IMG/VR virus record: IMGVR_UViG_2675903661_000019
Coordinates: 1-12,930 of that record
Source: a virus
Lineage: Duplodnaviria; Heunggongvirae; Uroviricota; Caudoviricetes
Direction: 5' to 3' (one strand)
DNA: 12,930 nucleotides
Position numbers and translations under genes: made by a program. How positions within the stretch are numbered: position 1 is the first letter of the stretch; every line of letters starts with the position of its first letter. The notes beneath the pieces were generated by a model, which saw only the letters and a list, made by a program, of their open reading frames with translations, did no database searches and was not told the DNA's origin. This document shows positions 1-12,056 of this stretch, one piece after another.

Positions 1-173
1 TGTCAGTTATCATCTTCGGTTACGGTTATCGGCAGAACGCCCTGCCGCTGACAAGAGCTTATTTGCCTGACCAATCTACTCCACATGATAGATAACTATC
101 ATTTATAACATTTCATTGATTAGTCTTTATTTTTCATTGCGTTACAAATAACACCCCAGTCAAAAACAGCGAA

Positions 174-197
174 ATTAACTACACCATTAACTACACC
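174..197. repeat. tandem direct repeat 2 x ATTAACTACACC
   Basis: Perfect 12-bp tandem duplication at 174-185 and 186-197. Confidence 0.6.
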
Positions 198-203
198 GTT
201 TCA

Positions 204-231
204 CGAACAATATCGAACAACCACGAACAAA
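204..231. repeat. three helically phased GAACAA repeats, second copy of the capsid-leader motif
   Basis: GAACAA at 205, 215, 225 (10-bp spacing); 17-bp identity with 7618-7634; preceded by a tandem 12-mer at 174-197. Confidence 0.6.
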
Positions 232-291
232 GATCAACACGCTTTAACCGTTATCATTTTCCGGCTATCCGTTATGAAGCTGGTGGATGTT

Positions 292-3052: not shown

Positions 3053-3120
3053 GCTTATTTTTTCGCCAGATTATTTTTCAAAAAATTCCCGTGCATAAAA
3101 ATTTGAGGAGGCGTTCGGTT

Positions 3121-3170
3121 CTGGGCGGGGTCGGGTTCGTCCTGAAAACTCCCCCCACCCCGTCCGGCTG
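3121..3170. other. candidate cos site region between HNH and terS
   Basis: GC-rich imperfect dyad GGGCGGGGTCGGG ... CCCCCCACCCCG inside the 289-bp non-coding gap between HNH stop (3342) and terS start (3052), the usual cos position in HNH-dependent cos-type HK97-like modules. Confidence 0.3.
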
Positions 3171-3341
3171 CCTCATCAGCGATTGCGGAAACATTCCATA
3201 ACCTCGCGGTCACGGTCGTTTAATCGCGTCGCTGTGATGCGTTCTGCGCGTCCTGATGCTTTATCTTTATGCCCTGTTTCCTGTGCCTTCCATGCGTCAC
3301 GCTGCCTTATAAGTCCACGGATAAGGCGGTTTTGTTCCCGC

Positions 3342-6180: not shown

Positions 6181-6206
6181 AATTTTTTTCACCCATAAAA
6201 CACTAA

Positions 6207-6224
6207 AGGGGCTTTTTAGCCCCT
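6207..6224 (-). promoter_or_regulatory. GC-rich hairpin between capsid and protease genes (possible attenuator)
   Basis: Minus strand AGGGGC-TAAAAA-GCCCCT followed by an interrupted T-rich tract (TTAGTGTTTTA), in the 55-nt gap between capsid stop and protease start. Confidence 0.4.
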
Positions 6225-6235
6225 TCTGTATGCTG

Positions 6236-7393
6236 TTAATCGTCGTCCTGTGGCAGTTCCAGAATCTTGATCGCGTTCGAATCCACCACGCCACCGCCTA
6301 AATATTTTTGCGTGAAAATTTTGATGAATCCTGGTTCTGTCAGGTTGTCCGGTCTGGTGCGAACACCTGTTTCGTGATCAACGATGTAGTAACCGCGTTT
6401 AAAGTCGCCCAGGGCAATAACGTTATCCGGCATAAACTCCAGATATTCGACCGGAAGGCCCAGCAACGTATCAGGATCACCCGCCTGTAAACGGTCACGC
6501 CAGATGTAATCACCGTTCGCGTTCTTCACCTTCTGGAGTTTTGCCGCCGTCGTGGAGTTAACCACCCAGACCGCGTTTTTGCGGTATTTTTTACGTAATG
6601 CAAATTTCAGGTCGATCAGCGGGTCCGCAGATGTCCACGCCAGAGATTCGGAAGGTTTAATTACCTGCAACGTACCAAAATCACGCTCTTTGTCGTTCTT
6701 CTCTGCACGGGGTACGGATAAAAAGCCTTTTGCTTTTTTGTCACCGTCGCCCACAACCAGATCGCTTTCTTCGGTTTCCGTGAAGGTGTCGCCAATCTCG
6801 CCCGTCAGCCATGAAAGGATGTCCACATCGGAAAAATCCACGATTTCCTGCGTGGTGCGCGGGTACGCATAGACCGGATACAGCTTAATGCTCACCTCGT
6901 TAATCTGCGGGGTGCTGGTCTGTTCGCGTGCCTTACCCTCTTCACCGTGGTTAACGGTCGCACCGCCAGCGGAAACAAGCTGCTTAAACTCGTTGCTGCT
7001 GATTTTCTTCACGGTACAGATGCGGCGCATGGTGGATTCATCCGTCAGCATTCGCATGATTTCGGTGTTCAGTTCGGGGATAACGGTATAACCACCATCA
7101 GCGGGAACGCCTGTACTCAATGCGCGGGTTTCACCTGTCAGAATGTAGTGACGTAGTTCGGCGGGGTCAGTGGTCTGGCTGTTTTTGCCTGGTTTACTGC
7201 GCTCTTCGTCAGCAACGGCCTCAAGGCGGGAGATGTCTTTATCGAGTGATTCAGCTTTAGCGCGTAATTCGTCAAATTTTGCGCCCTCAGCATCGTTAAG
7301 ACTGCGGTTTTCTTTTTCCGCGTTCTCCAGCATGTCGCGCATCTGATTTTTAATGGCGGTTTTCTGCTGGCGTAATTCGATTATTCTCGGCAT
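6236..7393 (-). CDS. major capsid protein (HK97 fold) with N-terminal coiled-coil delta/scaffold-like region
   Basis: 385-aa ORF; charged, coiled-coil-like first ~70 aa (EKENRSLNDAEGAKFDELRAKAESLDKDISRLEAVADEE) followed by a capsid-size body; ATG at 7393. Confidence 0.85.
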   Translation of the reverse strand: MPRIIELRQQKTAIKNQMRDMLENAEKENRSLNDAEGAKFDELRAKAESLDKDISRLEAVADEERSKPGKNSQTTDPAELRHYILTGETRALSTGVPADGGYTVIPELNTEIMRMLTDESTMRRICTVKKISSNEFKQLVSAGGATVNHGEEGKAREQTSTPQINEVSIKLYPVYAYPRTTQEIVDFSDVDILSWLTGEIGDTFTETEESDLVVGDGDKKAKGFLSVPRAEKNDKERDFGTLQVIKPSESLAWTSADPLIDLKFALRKKYRKNAVWVVNSTTAAKLQKVKNANGDYIWRDRLQAGDPDTLLGLPVEYLEFMPDNVIALGDFKRGYYIVDHETGVRTRPDNLTEPGFIKIFTQKYLGGGVVDSNAIKILELPQDDD

Positions 7394-7430
7394 AAAAAAA
7401 GTCCTGGGGTTAAGTAAGGAACTCCAGGAC
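7394..7430 (-). promoter_or_regulatory. hairpin plus U7 tract immediately upstream of the capsid start codon, sequestering the SD
   Basis: Minus strand reads GTCCTGG-(16 nt loop)-CCAGGAC-TTTTTTT-ATG; the only SD-like element (AGGA) lies in the 3' arm of the stem. Confidence 0.5.
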
Positions 7431-7483
7431 GCGGCAAAAACTCAACCGTTTTTCATAAGGGAATCAGCAATCGCACCGATCGT

Positions 7484-7531
7484 TTTCCCGCCTGGTAATG
7501 AATATTGGCGAGCACATTAACAGGCGGGAAA
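7484..7531. promoter_or_regulatory. 11-bp perfect inverted repeat with 26-bp spacer in capsid operon leader
   Basis: TTTCCCGCCTG at 7484-7494 and CAGGCGGGAAA at 7521-7531. Confidence 0.45.
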
Positions 7532-7603
7532 GTGGCCCCAGCGTCCTGGCACCACGGGCGAGAATAATCATGATTCAGTTCGGGTAAAATATGCCGATCC
7601 GCT

Positions 7604-7634
7604 CAGTGAACAACGTGGAACAACCACGAACAAA
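7604..7634. repeat. three helically phased GAACAA repeats upstream of capsid operon
   Basis: GAACAA at 7608, 7618, 7628 (exact 10-bp spacing); 17-bp core GAACAACCACGAACAAA (7618-7634) is identical to 215-231. Confidence 0.6.
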
Positions 7635-7640
7635 TAATTT

Positions 7641-7674
7641 ACAAAAAATAACAAAAAGCCGGATTGCTCCGGCT
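7641..7674 (-). terminator. intrinsic terminator after the 74-aa gene
   Basis: On the minus strand: stem AGCCGGA / TCCGGCT with 4-nt loop, followed by TTTTTGTTATTTTTT; lies 10 nt after the stop at 7685. Confidence 0.75.
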
Positions 7675-7684
7675 GTATGGGTGC

Positions 7685-8003: not shown

Positions 8004-8028
8004 CAAAAAAAGCCGGATTGCTCCGGCT
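8004..8028 (-). terminator. intrinsic terminator after the 82-aa gene (near-identical copy of the 7641-7674 terminator)
   Basis: Same AGCCGGA-GCAA-TCCGGCT hairpin followed by a T7 run on the minus strand; about 24 bp identical to the other copy. Confidence 0.75.
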
Positions 8029-8050: not shown

Positions 8051-8299
8051 CTACTCAGCTAATTTGCTCAGCCCCATGTCTGCATAAGTGCGATTTACTG
8101 CATTTCTCAGGTCTGCGTAGTTCTCCGTTGGCGGCTCCGGTGGCCTCTGTGCCTTCCTGGAACATTCCAGCCGTCGCATCGTAACCTGATGCCGTTCCTT
8201 GTCTATCTCCACCAGTTGCATGACTTCACCCCATCGCGCCGACGCCCTCCGGTAAAAGCCTTTTGCCTCGAGTTCCTCCGCTATGCGGTCATGTACCAT
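8051..8299 (-). CDS. hypothetical protein (82 aa)
   Basis: ATG at 8299 is preceded by GAGGGGG, which overlaps the SSB stop codon (TGAGGGGGTGACGATG); ORF ends at 8051 and is followed by an intrinsic terminator. The longer track ORF (to 8419) would overlap SSB by 110 nt. No family recognised. Confidence 0.5.
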   Translation of the reverse strand: MVHDRIAEELEAKGFYRRASARWGEVMQLVEIDKERHQVTMRRLECSRKAQRPPEPPTENYADLRNAVNRTYADMGLSKLAE

Positions 8300-9031: not shown

Positions 9032-9078
9032 TTATTTTCACCCCCTCGTTTAAAAAGTTTTTAGTTGTGCCTCCCCCC

Positions 9079-9302
9079 CCTCTACCCATCTACCCGAATG
9101 CTCATCATGTCAGTAATGGCGCGGCTTTCAGCGGGTAGATAGCTTTTTGGGCTCCTCTACCTGCCGTCTACCCTGCTACCTGAAACTGATAAAATCAGGT
9201 AGAAGAGGTAGAGAGCTTTTATTAGCCTTCTACCTGGCCCTCTACCCACTTATCATGTTGAATAATATGTATTTATTTCATTCAGGTAGATGGGGTAGAG
9301 GG
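9079..9302. repeat. iteron array, candidate origin of replication
   Basis: About 12 copies of CCTCTACCC / GGGTAGAGG-type motifs (core TCTACC / GGTAGA) in both orientations within ~220 bp, interspersed with AT-rich stretches (9250-9283), directly downstream of the primase stop at 9316. Confidence 0.7.
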
Positions 9303-9315
9303 CTTTTACAAAAAA

Positions 9316-11070
9316 TTATAAAAACGCGTCGCAATCGTCTGTTGTAATTGCGTTGGTCTGCGTTACTCCCTTAACTTTTCGCGTAATATATTCATGCCCG
9401 TAAACTTTCGCCGCTGGCTTCATGGCCTTGCTGAACTCAGCCACGTTTAGCGGTTTGCTCCTGCCTGCGTATGCCATAAACGCCAGATAGACGCGGTAAA
9501 GGCTGTTCCTGGTCGTGTACTTCACTGAATCGCCACCGCCCCCCATCATCAGGCCGCGCGCTTCCTCCAGAAAATTCAGGAACTGGCAAAACTCAATAAC
9601 CGGATCCGTCTGTTGCTTTATTGCCAGTGCTTCATCACCGTCACGCTGTTCCAGTAGTAAAGCCCGTGCCTTCTCAGGGTCGGTAAAGTTCGCCAGCAAG
9701 CGGCGGATAATAACGGGGATTTCAGCCGCAATCTTTTCCGGTAGTTCCCTGTCTTTTTCGGCCTCACTGACGATATTGTCGAAACGGAAAATCACGCGAC
9801 GACGTGCCACACCTCCGGCCCGTTCGGTGAATATCATCGGGTTATTGTTGGTCGCCAGCACCACCGCCCTGATTACAGCCGTGAAACGCTTTTCGTATTT
9901 CGGGTTAATTTCCACGGGGTCACCGCCCGTGATTTTCTTGATGCCCGTTCCTTCGCCTGTATATTTCGGCTGGTCAGCCAGGACGATAAGACGACTCCCG
10001 ACAACCTGCGCACGTCCACCAGCATCATCAAGCGATGTCATTTCAGCGCTTACCGTGTTCTGTTTCCCTGCCAGAAGGCTGGCTATGTGTGTGAATGTAC
10101 TTTTACCGCTCCCGCCGTCTCCGGTGGCCTCAATAAACATCTGCCAGTCGTACCGGTTCGCCATAATCATGTACAGCGCGGCACATATACGCATCATCTT
10201 GCGCGGGTCTTTTCCGGCTGCGTGCTCAAGCCATTTATGAAAGTTTGGCGCGTTATCGCGGATGTTCTCCCCTGGTGCTGGTGGCGTGTACTCAATACCG
10301 TTGTGCGTGGTGATCCAGTTCTCCGGCGTGTGCGGGGAAAATTCCCCCGTTTTCAGGTCAAGCGCACCATTGGCAAACGGCAGCAAATCGCCGGACGGCT
10401 CGCCCATTGGTTCGGCAATAACTTTTAACGCTTCCACGGCGTTATTGATTACGCGCTTGCTGAAAGTGGCCCTGTGCTCTGAATAGATCGCCACCATTTC
10501 GCGGCTAAGTTCCATTGTACTGACCGGACACCATACCCCGCCGCGCCATACGTGGACGATTTCACTTTCAGGATGTACGCAAATGCCATCAAAGCGCCCG
10601 GCAAGCAGCTGCGCGCGCTCACTGTCCGCCATCTGCGAAAGTTGTGCCTTTTGCTTTACCGGAAGCTCAATGACCAGACCATCAGAAAGATTCTGGCGCT
10701 CACGGGCCAGATATTCGCGCCAGTTCTCCACCTTCTGAACGTGCATTCCCTCAGGGTAAAAATTTGCATCCTGTACGCCTGCCGCCGCCAGTTTCTGACC
10801 AATCGCCTTGATCATTACTGGCTCAAGATGTCCGGCCCTGAATATGCGTACTGATTTTCTGCCTTCCGGCACAATTTGCAGCTTATCCAGTTCGGATAAC
10901 TGCTGCTCCCCAAGCCACACAGGAGGCTCATTATCTCCGGCCATACGCGCGTCATGTTCCTGCCATTGTTTTGCGTGTGACCAGGCATCACTACCCGCAA
11001 AAATAATGACTTCTGTTTCTTTGTGTTTTATGCCGCGTGACTGCTGTTTTACGTTCGGTGCCAGTTTCAT
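9316..11070 (-). CDS. primase/helicase, P4-alpha / D5-like (satellite Pri-Rep type)
   Basis: 584-aa ORF with central P-loop NTPase Walker A GDGGSGKST and Walker B-like LIVLAD, N-terminal primase-like region; ATGA overlap with the upstream 99-aa gene; iteron-rich AT-containing region begins right at its stop. Confidence 0.8.
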   Translation of the reverse strand: MKLAPNVKQQSRGIKHKETEVIIFAGSDAWSHAKQWQEHDARMAGDNEPPVWLGEQQLSELDKLQIVPEGRKSVRIFRAGHLEPVMIKAIGQKLAAAGVQDANFYPEGMHVQKVENWREYLARERQNLSDGLVIELPVKQKAQLSQMADSERAQLLAGRFDGICVHPESEIVHVWRGGVWCPVSTMELSREMVAIYSEHRATFSKRVINNAVEALKVIAEPMGEPSGDLLPFANGALDLKTGEFSPHTPENWITTHNGIEYTPPAPGENIRDNAPNFHKWLEHAAGKDPRKMMRICAALYMIMANRYDWQMFIEATGDGGSGKSTFTHIASLLAGKQNTVSAEMTSLDDAGGRAQVVGSRLIVLADQPKYTGEGTGIKKITGGDPVEINPKYEKRFTAVIRAVVLATNNNPMIFTERAGGVARRRVIFRFDNIVSEAEKDRELPEKIAAEIPVIIRRLLANFTDPEKARALLLEQRDGDEALAIKQQTDPVIEFCQFLNFLEEARGLMMGGGGDSVKYTTRNSLYRVYLAFMAYAGRSKPLNVAEFSKAMKPAAKVYGHEYITRKVKGVTQTNAITTDDCDAFL

Positions 11071-11366
11071 TTTTTACCCCTGAATCCGTTAATCATGGTT
11101 TTCAGCTTCTGGATGTTTTCCCGTGCTCTGGCGTTGCTGGTGGGCACGTTATGCGGCGCGGTCTGTACCAGAGAAAAATCACGCCGGAACTGATAAACAG
11201 GCATCACGCAATCATATTCGTAACCTTCACGGCGGTAAGTTACGCACCGTCCCGCCACACCCTTAATCATTACCGTGCCGCCGTACTGGTCGCGGTAAAT
11301 ATCACCGCGCGTAAATTTAGGGTGAGTGTTGCCACTGGCAGTTAAGCCAGAATATTTAAGTTTCAT
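11067..11366 (-). CDS. hypothetical protein (99 aa)
   Basis: ATG at 11366 with GGAGA about 9 nt upstream; stop overlaps the primase start; position resembles small early genes that precede primase in P4-like elements. No family recognised. Confidence 0.5.
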   Translation of the reverse strand: MKLKYSGLTASGNTHPKFTRGDIYRDQYGGTVMIKGVAGRCVTYRREGYEYDCVMPVYQFRRDFSLVQTAPHNVPTSNARARENIQKLKTMINGFRGKK

Positions 11367-11599: not shown

Positions 11600-12056
11600 G
11601 ACTCACCCCCTGGCGAATACGGGCGACAAAAATCAGATGTGTGTGCGGCAGCTGGGCGCGTGCTTCGCCTTCTGTTGCTGCCGTGACGGTAAAGAGTGAT
11701 CTTTGTTTTTCCTGGCACTGCATAAAGCGCCAGACAAAGTAAGGGCGTGCGGATACAGCCATGTGAAAGGCTCCCAAAGTGAAATTAAGGAGTCTCGCTA
11801 CTACGCTGCTAAACGGGGTGGCGAGACGTAACAGGGTTAGCAGACTGGCACTTTGGGAACCAGCGAGCGCAAAGGCTCCCCCGTTACGCCCCGCCATAAT
11901 GCGGGTATGGGTAGGCTTACGGACACAAAAAAACCGCATATCGGAATGTAAGCGGCTGTCCGCCAAAGTATTCAGGCTGCTAAACCCGGTCGCCATGTGG
12001 GCGACGGGGGAAGCATACAGCCCCGTTATAATTTTTTGCAAGCGGTTTTTACGCAT
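11592..12056 (-). CDS. candidate ORF (154 aa, very basic), doubtful; may instead be structured leader RNA
   Basis: ATG at 12056 with CAGGGG 8 nt upstream; 3' end overlaps the next start as CATGCATAA. Its last ~50 codons and the downstream junction are duplicated in the preceding segment (12049-12200). Composition (Ala/Arg/Leu/Ser-rich, few acidic residues) is atypical. Confidence 0.25.
   Translation of the reverse strand: MRKNRLQKIITGLYASPVAHMATGFSSLNTLADSRLHSDMRFFCVRKPTHTRIMAGRNGGAFALAGSQSASLLTLLRLATPFSSVVARLLNFTLGAFHMAVSARPYFVWRFMQCQEKQRSLFTVTAATEGEARAQLPHTHLIFVARIRQGVSHA

Follow-up and report, generated by a model that had tools for sequence, protein, structure and literature searches.

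This analysis concerns the 290-nucleotide (nt) interval (7394-7684, minus strand) that precedes the major capsid gene in a 12,930-nt stretch of viral DNA, IMG/VR record IMGVR_UViG_2675903661_000019, referred to here over its full length as the window. Open reading frames (ORFs), Pfam domains and DNA matches identify the window as a capsid-forming phage-inducible chromosomal island (cf-PICI), close to E. coli CP-933C/EcCIEDL933. Satellites of this widespread class make their own capsids and depend on helper phages for tails alone. As expected of this class, the ORFs and Pfam matches include capsid, protease, portal, head-tail connectors, HNH, TerS and TerL, with no tail or lysis genes. All of the long ORFs around the capsid leader lie on the minus strand: primase (11070-9316), SSB (8720-8310), a PerC-family gene (8299-8051), a gene for a 74-amino acid (aa) protein (phrog_1957; 7909-7685) and the HK97-type major capsid gene (7393-6236), whose ATG is also the start of the RefSeq capsid coding sequence. 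Downstream of capsid follow, in order, prohead protease, portal, head closure, connector, HNH, TerS and TerL, and this gene order agrees with the published description of cf-PICIs. RefSeq annotates this DNA as an island that sits between roxA and phoQ, and the islands of E. coli O157:H7 are ~98% identical to it. The genes int and alpA lie outside the window and are known from the RefSeq sister island, which carries PICI-type int/alpA/pri genes and encodes a tyrosine integrase with an arm-binding domain, a 62-aa AlpA (PF05930, Phage_AlpA) and the packaging module. The PHROG label of AlpA is "excisionase and transcriptional regulator".

How cf-PICIs time the production of their capsids is undescribed. 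The alpA gene is required for induction of EcCIEDL933, and the founding paper on that island names a "packaging operon" without describing a promoter, terminator or leader for it (bioRxiv 10.1101/2022.09.08.507074). The published transcriptome papers on enterohemorrhagic E. coli that were consulted give no start-site data for the island. The 290-nt interval is best read as the region that controls the late operon of the satellite, a gene set extending from capsid through terminase. An earlier note on this DNA, made from the sequence alone, had treated the whole interval as one leader. Instead, only ~160 nt (about 7555 to 7394) is likely to be transcribed leader; the 130 nt upstream holds a terminator, a repeat array and a promoter.

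Two sets of sequences were used for comparison. One consists of 80 loci with capsid homologues (63-98% identity) from other genera, among them Proteus, Providencia, Xenorhabdus, Photorhabdus, Serratia, Erwinia, Citrobacter and Gilliamella; their leaders are referred to below as types A (27 distinct sequences), B, C and E and as the Gilliamella leaders. The other, representing the E. coli lineage, consists of 67 copies from genomes, metagenomes and viral contigs, of which 66 have full-length leaders. The capsid leader region is present at 95-100% identity in ~360 complete E. coli genomes, and the same control-region architecture is seen across the capsid-homologue loci of other genera. When similar DNA was sought in true phages, matches were only to cf-PICI-like records.

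Elements upstream of the leader

An intrinsic terminator, AGCCGGAGCAATCCGGCT followed by a T run, closes the early (replication/regulator) genes. The terminator scan places it at 7650-7674 (minus strand; -12.6 kcal/mol), with AGCCGGAGCAATCCGGCT and the T run at 7674-7657; the upstream terminator of the earlier note is real. A second, identical copy was called by the same scan at 8004-8028 (minus strand, also -12.6 kcal/mol; sequence copy at 8028-8011), such that the two terminators bracket the gene for the 74-aa protein.

Downstream of the terminator, a box (TTTGTAAATTATT) is followed by three TTGTTC units with a 10-bp period, making four TTGTnn units in total (7608-7645, minus strand; putative AlpA operator). 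A second array, of four TTGTTC units followed by two copies of GGTGTAGTTAAT, was found by sequence match in an att arm (205-240, minus strand), and the arrays at 240-205 and 7645-7608 are almost identical. In a sister island (L001) the array is present upstream of int at attL, between int and alpA (five units), in the leader and at attR, giving 5 matches where 0.03 would be expected; the box and TGTTY repeats are also found upstream of the capsid gene in most of the 80 loci from other genera. Excisionase-type regulators, P2 Cox and P4 Vis among them, typically have phased direct repeats at att arms and promoter regions alike. Since AlpA belongs to this class, we infer that the TTGTTC array is its operator. 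If so, an array common to the att sites, the alpA region and the capsid promoter would tie excision and head synthesis to one small regulator.

The att arms themselves pair two motifs, the TTGTTC array and two copies of GGTGTAGTTAAT (window 170-240, minus strand; L001 1375-1440 and 16522-16580). Presumably, one of these is the AlpA site and the other an Int arm-type site. In the E. coli lineage, the PerC-family gene (8051-8299, minus strand), labeled a "transcriptional activator", lies directly upstream of the late control region. However, PerC is unlikely to be the protein that binds the box, given that island L082 and the type A islands have the box and no PerC gene; islands of other genera likewise keep the box and array without it.

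A weak σ70 late promoter, TTTACC-16-TATTCT, is predicted downstream of the array (7561-7588, minus strand; -35 at 7588-7583, -10 at 7566-7561), with matches to 8 of 12 consensus positions. From its placement, transcription is predicted to start at ~7555 +/- 2, which is the first base of hairpin 1 (see below). The distance between the box and the downstream hexamer (TAnnnT) is nearly constant among the leader types: 78 nt in the window, 76-77 nt in 24 of 26 type A leaders and 77 nt in 13 type B/C loci. This spacing is kept despite unrelated sequence between the two elements, often including a terminator-like hairpin of constant length. Variants without that hairpin, the window among them, all have a -35-like TTTAC(A/T/G/C) 16 nt upstream of the hexamer. 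The hexamer itself is TATTCT in the window, TATCTT, TATATT or TATGTT in type A and TTAAAT in types B/C; its distance from hairpin 1 is 5 nt both in the window and in those 24 type A leaders. Types B/C have no hairpin 1. The promoter scan calls the homologous site in L082 (TTTACA-16-TATGTT). In another island, L083, a near-consensus promoter that is also called by the scan (TTGCGA-16-TATAAT, 2967-2994) stands in for the array and weak promoter, with the spacing to hairpin 1 that the window promoter has. With an array and a promoter inside the 290 nt, the control that keeps capsid "off until induction" probably acts for the most part on transcription. The earlier note had placed this control after transcription; its idea of a default-off state is retained here, with most of the control probably at another level.

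Overlapping the -10 hexamer is an 11-nt anti-start element, GATTATTCTCG (7559-7569, minus strand). It forms an 11/11 inverted repeat with capsid codons 2-5 (7389-7379) within the capsid start region (ATG CCG AGA ATA ATC, 7379-7393, minus strand), a long-range pairing that the earlier note overlooked. Because it overlaps the -10 hexamer, only read-through transcripts are predicted to carry the element, and in models of read-through RNA it pairs with codons 2-5 with a probability of 0.78-0.96. Analogous complementarity occurs in types B/C (UUUUUCAUGGUGUU with AACACCAUGAAAAA), in type A (UUUUUCAUG with CAUGAAAAA) and in Gilliamella (UUUCAUAUCU with AGAUAUGAAA). In each type the complementary segment lies just upstream of the TAnnnT hexamer, and its sequence differs by type. 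The window capsid starts MPRII rather than MKKLL, and the upstream element differs to match. The support for this putative fold-back is recurrence across types, not compensatory change. Pairing with codons 2-5 suggests that the recurrent complementarity would silence read-through transcripts. A second complementarity, between TCGGCATA (7597-7590) and the start codon, was rejected: a change from ATGCCG to ATGCAG in Shigella is uncompensated, and this pairing cannot nest with the 11-nt pairing.

The structured capsid leader

The predicted 5' untranslated region (7554-7391) has a folding z-score of -4.36, a stability matched by none of 200 shuffles. Chance levels for single elements were obtained from 1000 dinucleotide-preserving shuffles of 7684-7391. 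Hairpin 1 (7532-7555, minus strand; GTGG-TG-CCAG-GACG-CTGG-GG-CCAC), seen in the folds, would constitute the 5' end of the late mRNA. It is followed by hairpin 2 (7484-7531, minus strand), which emerged from an inverted-repeat search. The 11-bp inverted repeat that the earlier note had recorded at 7484-7531 is the perfect core of this larger hairpin, whose 17-nt arms are 94% complementary (one mismatch) and are separated by a 14-nt loop. A perfect inverted repeat of at least 11 nt arises in 2 of the 1000 shuffles.

Type A leaders have a comparable arrangement, consisting of a 5' hairpin (GTGGCACTCAGACGTGAGCCGCCAC), a long second hairpin and a third whose end is 5 nt short of the ATG. Hairpin 1 is homologous to the type A GTGGCACTCAGACGTGAGCCGCCAC, with the same architecture and GACG loop and with compensatory changes; in the type A counterpart of hairpin 2, 9 of 10 pairs are changed on both sides. 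The inverted repeat of the earlier note thus has a strongly covarying counterpart in relatives. Among the 27 type A sequences, hairpins 1 and 2 contain 15 double-changed pairs versus 9.3 +/- 1.7 in shuffles and 58 double-change cells versus 15.0 +/- 3.1 (0 of 500 shuffles as high), and pairing is 91.7%, a level that falls to 44% or less once the partners are slid. For a covariance model (R1) made from the type A leaders, the best match in the window is 7558-7445 (15.8 bits, E ~0.005; next match 10.4 bits), where it aligns both hairpins. The loop of hairpin 2 varies in relatives from 14 to ~46 nt. A search of Rfam with the window and seven relatives gave no leader match at E <= 1. We take the structured leader to belong to a wider, undescribed family, absent from Rfam and from true phage genomes, and the region offers cis-elements, this family included, that can be tested.

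Two mini-ORFs within or near the leader (7571 onward, 35 codons; 7456-7442, 4 codons) were considered and set aside, neither having a Shine-Dalgarno (SD) sequence. The sequence CCCTTATGAAAAACGGTTGA at 7442-7460 (minus strand) resembles the ancestral capsid start (..CATGAAAAAA..), to which the covariance model aligned it; it may be a relic of the rearrangement that created the MPRII start.

Hairpin 3 (7401-7430, minus strand; 30 nt, -14.1 kcal/mol) pairs GTCCTGGAGTT with AACCCCAGGAC. Read on the minus strand as GTCCTGGaGTT-CCTTACTT-AACcCCAGGAC, it has 7 bp, an A.C mismatch, 3 bp and an 8-nt loop. Directly after it come TTTTTTT (7394-7400, minus strand), which is the U7 tract of the RNA, and the ATG (7393-7391). 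This succession of GTCCTGG-loop-CCAGGAC hairpin, T run and start codon at 7430-7391 (minus strand) is just as the earlier note had given it, and so is the burial of the only SD-like motif, an AGGA (7405-7402) in the 3' arm, which no transcript model leaves unpaired with a probability above 0.03. In addition, TATGAAAAA (7449-7457, minus strand) is complementary to TTTTTTATG (7399-7391). Both the minimum-energy and the centroid structures predict that, as RNA, UAUGAAAAA (7457-7449) and U6AUG (7399-7391) close a three-way junction around hairpin 3. This would half-mask the start codon, and the unpaired probability of the AUG in predicted folds is 0.45-0.57.

Hairpin 3 and its U tract have the features of an intrinsic terminator: a stable, G-C-closed stem with U7 immediately 3' of it. 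Hairpin 3 is more stable than both nearby terminators (-12.6 kcal/mol). The terminator scan does not call it in the window, on account of the A.C mismatch in the stem; in the L083 variant, where the stem is uninterrupted, the scan scores it as terminator-like. By chance, a hairpin of -10 kcal/mol or lower abutting at least six T's occurs in 51 of the 1000 shuffles, and one of -14 kcal/mol or lower in 10. Across the E. coli lineage, the 5' arm does not vary (n = 67), variants of the 3' arm (CTTC, TCCC, CTGC) keep or improve the pairing, and the U tract is T7 or T8 in all 66 full-length leaders. The earlier note had named a lack of this pairing in relatives as one outcome that would refute its proposal, and the comparison with other genera does not refute it. 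Three leader types, that of the window included, have a hairpin based 5-8 nt upstream of the capsid ATG, and the sequences of these hairpins are unrelated. The start-proximal stems are GUCCUGG/CCAGGAC in the window, GGUUUC/GAAACC in type A (invariant, n = 27) and CUGCAUG/CAUGCAG in type B; within types, the stem is either invariant or changed on one side only. Types C and E have short, unstructured leaders, and the Gilliamella leaders are also without hairpins.

Between positions -20 and -3, 61 of 68 distinct related capsid start regions have no AGGA, GGAG or GAGG. In the window, the SD hybrid of the capsid gene is -4.0 kcal/mol, versus -8 to -12 kcal/mol for the strong SDs of neighboring genes. 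Since the family is largely without SDs, hiding the SD is unlikely to be the core function of hairpin 3; of the occlusion put forward in the earlier note, the buried motif stands, and its importance probably does not.

Downstream, a terminator-like hairpin lies directly after the capsid stop codon (6205-6226, minus strand; -15.1 kcal/mol, weak U tract). It could set the excess of capsid over protease and portal.

Proposed default-off control and alternative explanations

The reading that we prefer, with a confidence that falls a little short of even, is that the interval is a default-off control region for the late operon, in which the last hairpin serves as both an attenuator and a mask of the initiation site. 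The early terminator and the fold-back would silence transcription arriving from the early genes; transcripts that leak through would carry 7569-7559, fold onto codons 2-5 and not be translatable. Upon helper induction, AlpA would act at the array to turn on the weak TTTACC-16-TATTCT promoter, with a start at ~7555. Late transcripts would then begin at hairpin 1, without 7569-7559. At hairpin 3 and its U7-8, attenuation would cause some polymerases to stop just before the ATG, yielding a leader RNA of ~160 nt, and the hairpin would additionally mask the initiation region. Consequently, basal promoter activity would give little capsid, while strong AlpA-driven transcription would supply enough read-through mRNA. 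Initiation on the late mRNA is probably SD-independent, using a U/A-rich start region like those of the mostly SD-less relatives.

Several observations weigh against this default-off model. The promoter, its start site and the binding of AlpA are all inferred from sequence; the window promoter falls below the scan threshold and was not called, although a sub-threshold promoter fits the need for an activator. In one island (L231), it is doubtful that the array near the regulator gene and the array in the leader share one motif. As for the fold-back, covariation within type B/C is at the level of shuffles, the type B/C pairing has central mismatches in 11-13 of 37 sequences, and the O157 islands have one mismatch in the anti-start element (GAGTATTCTCG). 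Hairpin 3 shows no compensatory double changes among the 67 E. coli-lineage copies, because the diversity of the lineage is low. A U tract after the start-proximal hairpin is found only in the E. coli lineage of the window and is absent from all other leader types, which implies that attenuation is not the ancestral role of this hairpin. Thus, of the termination proposed in the earlier note, the anatomy of hairpin 3/U7 holds, and a family-wide function does not. Finally, a strong terminator before the most abundantly needed protein is costly, and EcCIEDL933, which has the T8 version, makes capsids efficiently. Taken together, these last two points call for either high read-through or a further antitermination step.

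An unlikely but substantial competitor is a purely translational gate, in which hairpin 3 and the helix between the A run and U run block ribosomes until a trans-acting factor or RNA remodeling opens the leader after induction. The U tract would then be a spacer or a platform for ribosomal protein S1 rather than a terminator. The AGGA that is always paired and the AUG that is about half paired are what such a gate would show, and types A and B conserve a hairpin near the start codon that has no U tract after it; the invariance of the type A stem GGUUUC/GAAACC (n = 27) suggests a specific binder. Candidates for the factor are the 74-aa phrog_1957 protein, PerC, a ProQ/FinO-type chaperone and a helper product. 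Homologues of the 74-aa protein are encoded just upstream of the capsid leader in 26 loci of other genera, a position that makes it a candidate leader-acting factor, and in an E. coli cf-PICI a ProQ/FinO-domain gene (L082, 5191-5721) lies two genes upstream of the structured capsid leader. However, the sister islands L084, L087 and L089 have the same leader without the 74-aa gene, PerC being followed by the terminator and then the leader. No such factor was identified; nor did an antiterminator, an RNA switch or a helper factor come to light, where the earlier note had called for an anti-terminator, RNA remodeling or a helper-derived factor. Furthermore, most relatives have no SD for the hairpin to hide. 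Lastly, a stable hairpin directly followed by U7-8 is expected to terminate E. coli RNA polymerase, and the hairpin of -14 kcal/mol with its 7-8 U's should do so regardless of any such gate.

Hairpin 3 also has some likeness to the dual terminator/sequestor platforms known from riboswitches and attenuators, in which one hairpin both precedes a U tract and holds the SD-like motif. A 9-nt segment of the leader (7549-7541) could pair with the 5' arm of hairpin 3, as in such platforms, but this alternative is not thermodynamically favored and could be due to chance (~0.16 expected, as estimated from the sequence length). Unlike these platforms, the leader has no aptamer, leader peptide logic or Rfam match.

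The opposite possibility, that the leader promotes expression, seems to us about equally unlikely. Here, the hairpins would shield an abundant mRNA from 5'-end-dependent RNase E, the U tract would aid SD-independent initiation, and the resemblance to a terminator would be incidental or leaky. Stabilizer hairpins at the 5' ends of transcripts are known from ompA and T7 phi10, and hairpin 1 is similarly placed at the predicted +1; starts that are A/U-rich and SD-less are the norm in the family, and the island is known for efficient capsid production. Yet the type C and Gilliamella leaders are free of hairpins, so stabilization must be dispensable; burial of the start region and the fold-back complementarity are left unexplained; and a U7-8 tract right after a G-C-closed stem is a strong termination signal.

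If that signal were efficient, the late operon would need processive antitermination, with hairpin 3-U7 acting like tR' and being bypassed only by polymerases modified at the late promoter. We consider an obligatory mechanism of this sort less likely still. The late leader of λ, PR' - 6S RNA - tR', is read through by Q. Like this lambdoid leader, the control region here has a putative inducible late promoter, a short structured leader (~160 nt) and a hairpin with U tract before the head genes, as well as further terminators within the operon, a terminator-like hairpin appearing again after the capsid gene. There are several differences, though. There is no Q-binding element and no -10-like pause element, TAnnnT being absent from the first 30 transcribed bases (7555-7525), and no Q-like gene was seen in the island. 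The putative activator sites lie farther upstream, at ~-54 to -91, instead of in the interval from -35 to -10. The terminator holds the SD-like motif and directly precedes the start codon, and sister types, including relatives with hairpins 1 and 2, have no terminator (U tract) after the last hairpin. Antitermination by AlpA itself was rejected: the P. aeruginosa antiterminator of that name is a different, larger, Q-like protein whose site lies between -35 and -10 (PMC9371919), and the AlpA of the island is a 62-aa PF05930 protein.

The modifier need not be a protein, since nascent RNA of hairpins 1 and 2 could act in cis, as does the put RNA of HK022. The size and placement of the two-hairpin module, ~70 nt directly downstream of the predicted start and upstream of terminators, match those of put RNA (PMC9378689). 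No similarity in sequence or structure was detected; R1 finds nothing in the HK022 immunity region (27.6-30.1 kb), with a best score of 4.1 bits, and the second hairpin is variable, with loops of 14 to ~46 nt. That hairpins 1 and 2 are a put-like cis antiterminator, or the docking site of one encoded by the satellite, is a long shot. Were it true, only polymerases from the AlpA-dependent promoter would ignore hairpin 3-U7 and the post-capsid terminator, and this would be a phage satellite with promoter-specific antitermination of its own capsid operon.

Chance structure without function is highly improbable: a hairpin with a T run does appear in 1-5% of shuffles of this T-rich region, but ~360 genomes share the region at 95-100% identity with neither stem nor U tract lost, the architecture recurs in other genera and the folding z-score is -4.4.

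Two further systems resemble parts of the default-off arrangement. As in the fold-back of IS10/IS50, a segment upstream of the operon's own start, overlapping the -10, complements the translation start region, and only transcripts entering from outside would be silenced. Here, it is codons 2-5 that would pair, not the SD and AUG, the start site is a predicted one, and the complementarity recurs across leader types without covariation within types. P4 Vis and P2 Cox are excisionase-regulators that act on satellite late promoters. Common to them and to AlpA are a small winged helix-turn-helix protein of the excisionase family and phased direct repeats both at att arms and before late or structural operons; the motif and geometry here differ from those of cox boxes, and the same repeats could alternatively be Int arm-type sites. 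The layout is best filed, by analogy, as one that would work like a PR'-6S-tR' leader combined with an IS10-type fold-back and a Cox/Vis-type operator, specific to cf-PICI satellites.

Other features of the island

Ahead of the early operon, window 11814-12018 (minus strand) contains a C4 antisense RNA (RF01695, 71 bits), together with C4 a1/b1 target sites (RF03163, 45.5 bits, just below the gathering score of 46.7 bits) and an isrK-like match. The C4 RNA and target sites suggest a P1/P4-type RNA immunity in the satellite. Pairing of the C4 immunity RNA with the capsid leader was rejected, as 210 of 300 shuffles were equal or better.

Directly downstream of the primase gene, at 9071-9308, there are at least 10 GGTAGAGGG/CCCTCTACC iterons in both orientations, which probably constitute the replication origin. 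The deposited 16.5-kb "phage" vB_KppS-Ant (LR881103.1) is a cf-PICI-like genome linearized between HNH and terS; its ends thus place cos in the HNH-terS gap, corresponding to window 3053-3341. A cos site or replication origin within the capsid leader was rejected, given that this packaged relative opens at HNH-terS and that the iteron-rich origin is at 9071-9308.

Window 11067-11366 (minus strand) encodes a 99-aa DUF4222 ORF with RGD at residues 20-22. This appears to be RgdR/ECs1581, the published regulator of the locus of enterocyte effacement and of motility from O-island 51 (PMC3378721). The island is OI-51/CP-933C of E. coli O157:H7, and the presence of the virulence regulator RgdR gives its wiring some medical interest.

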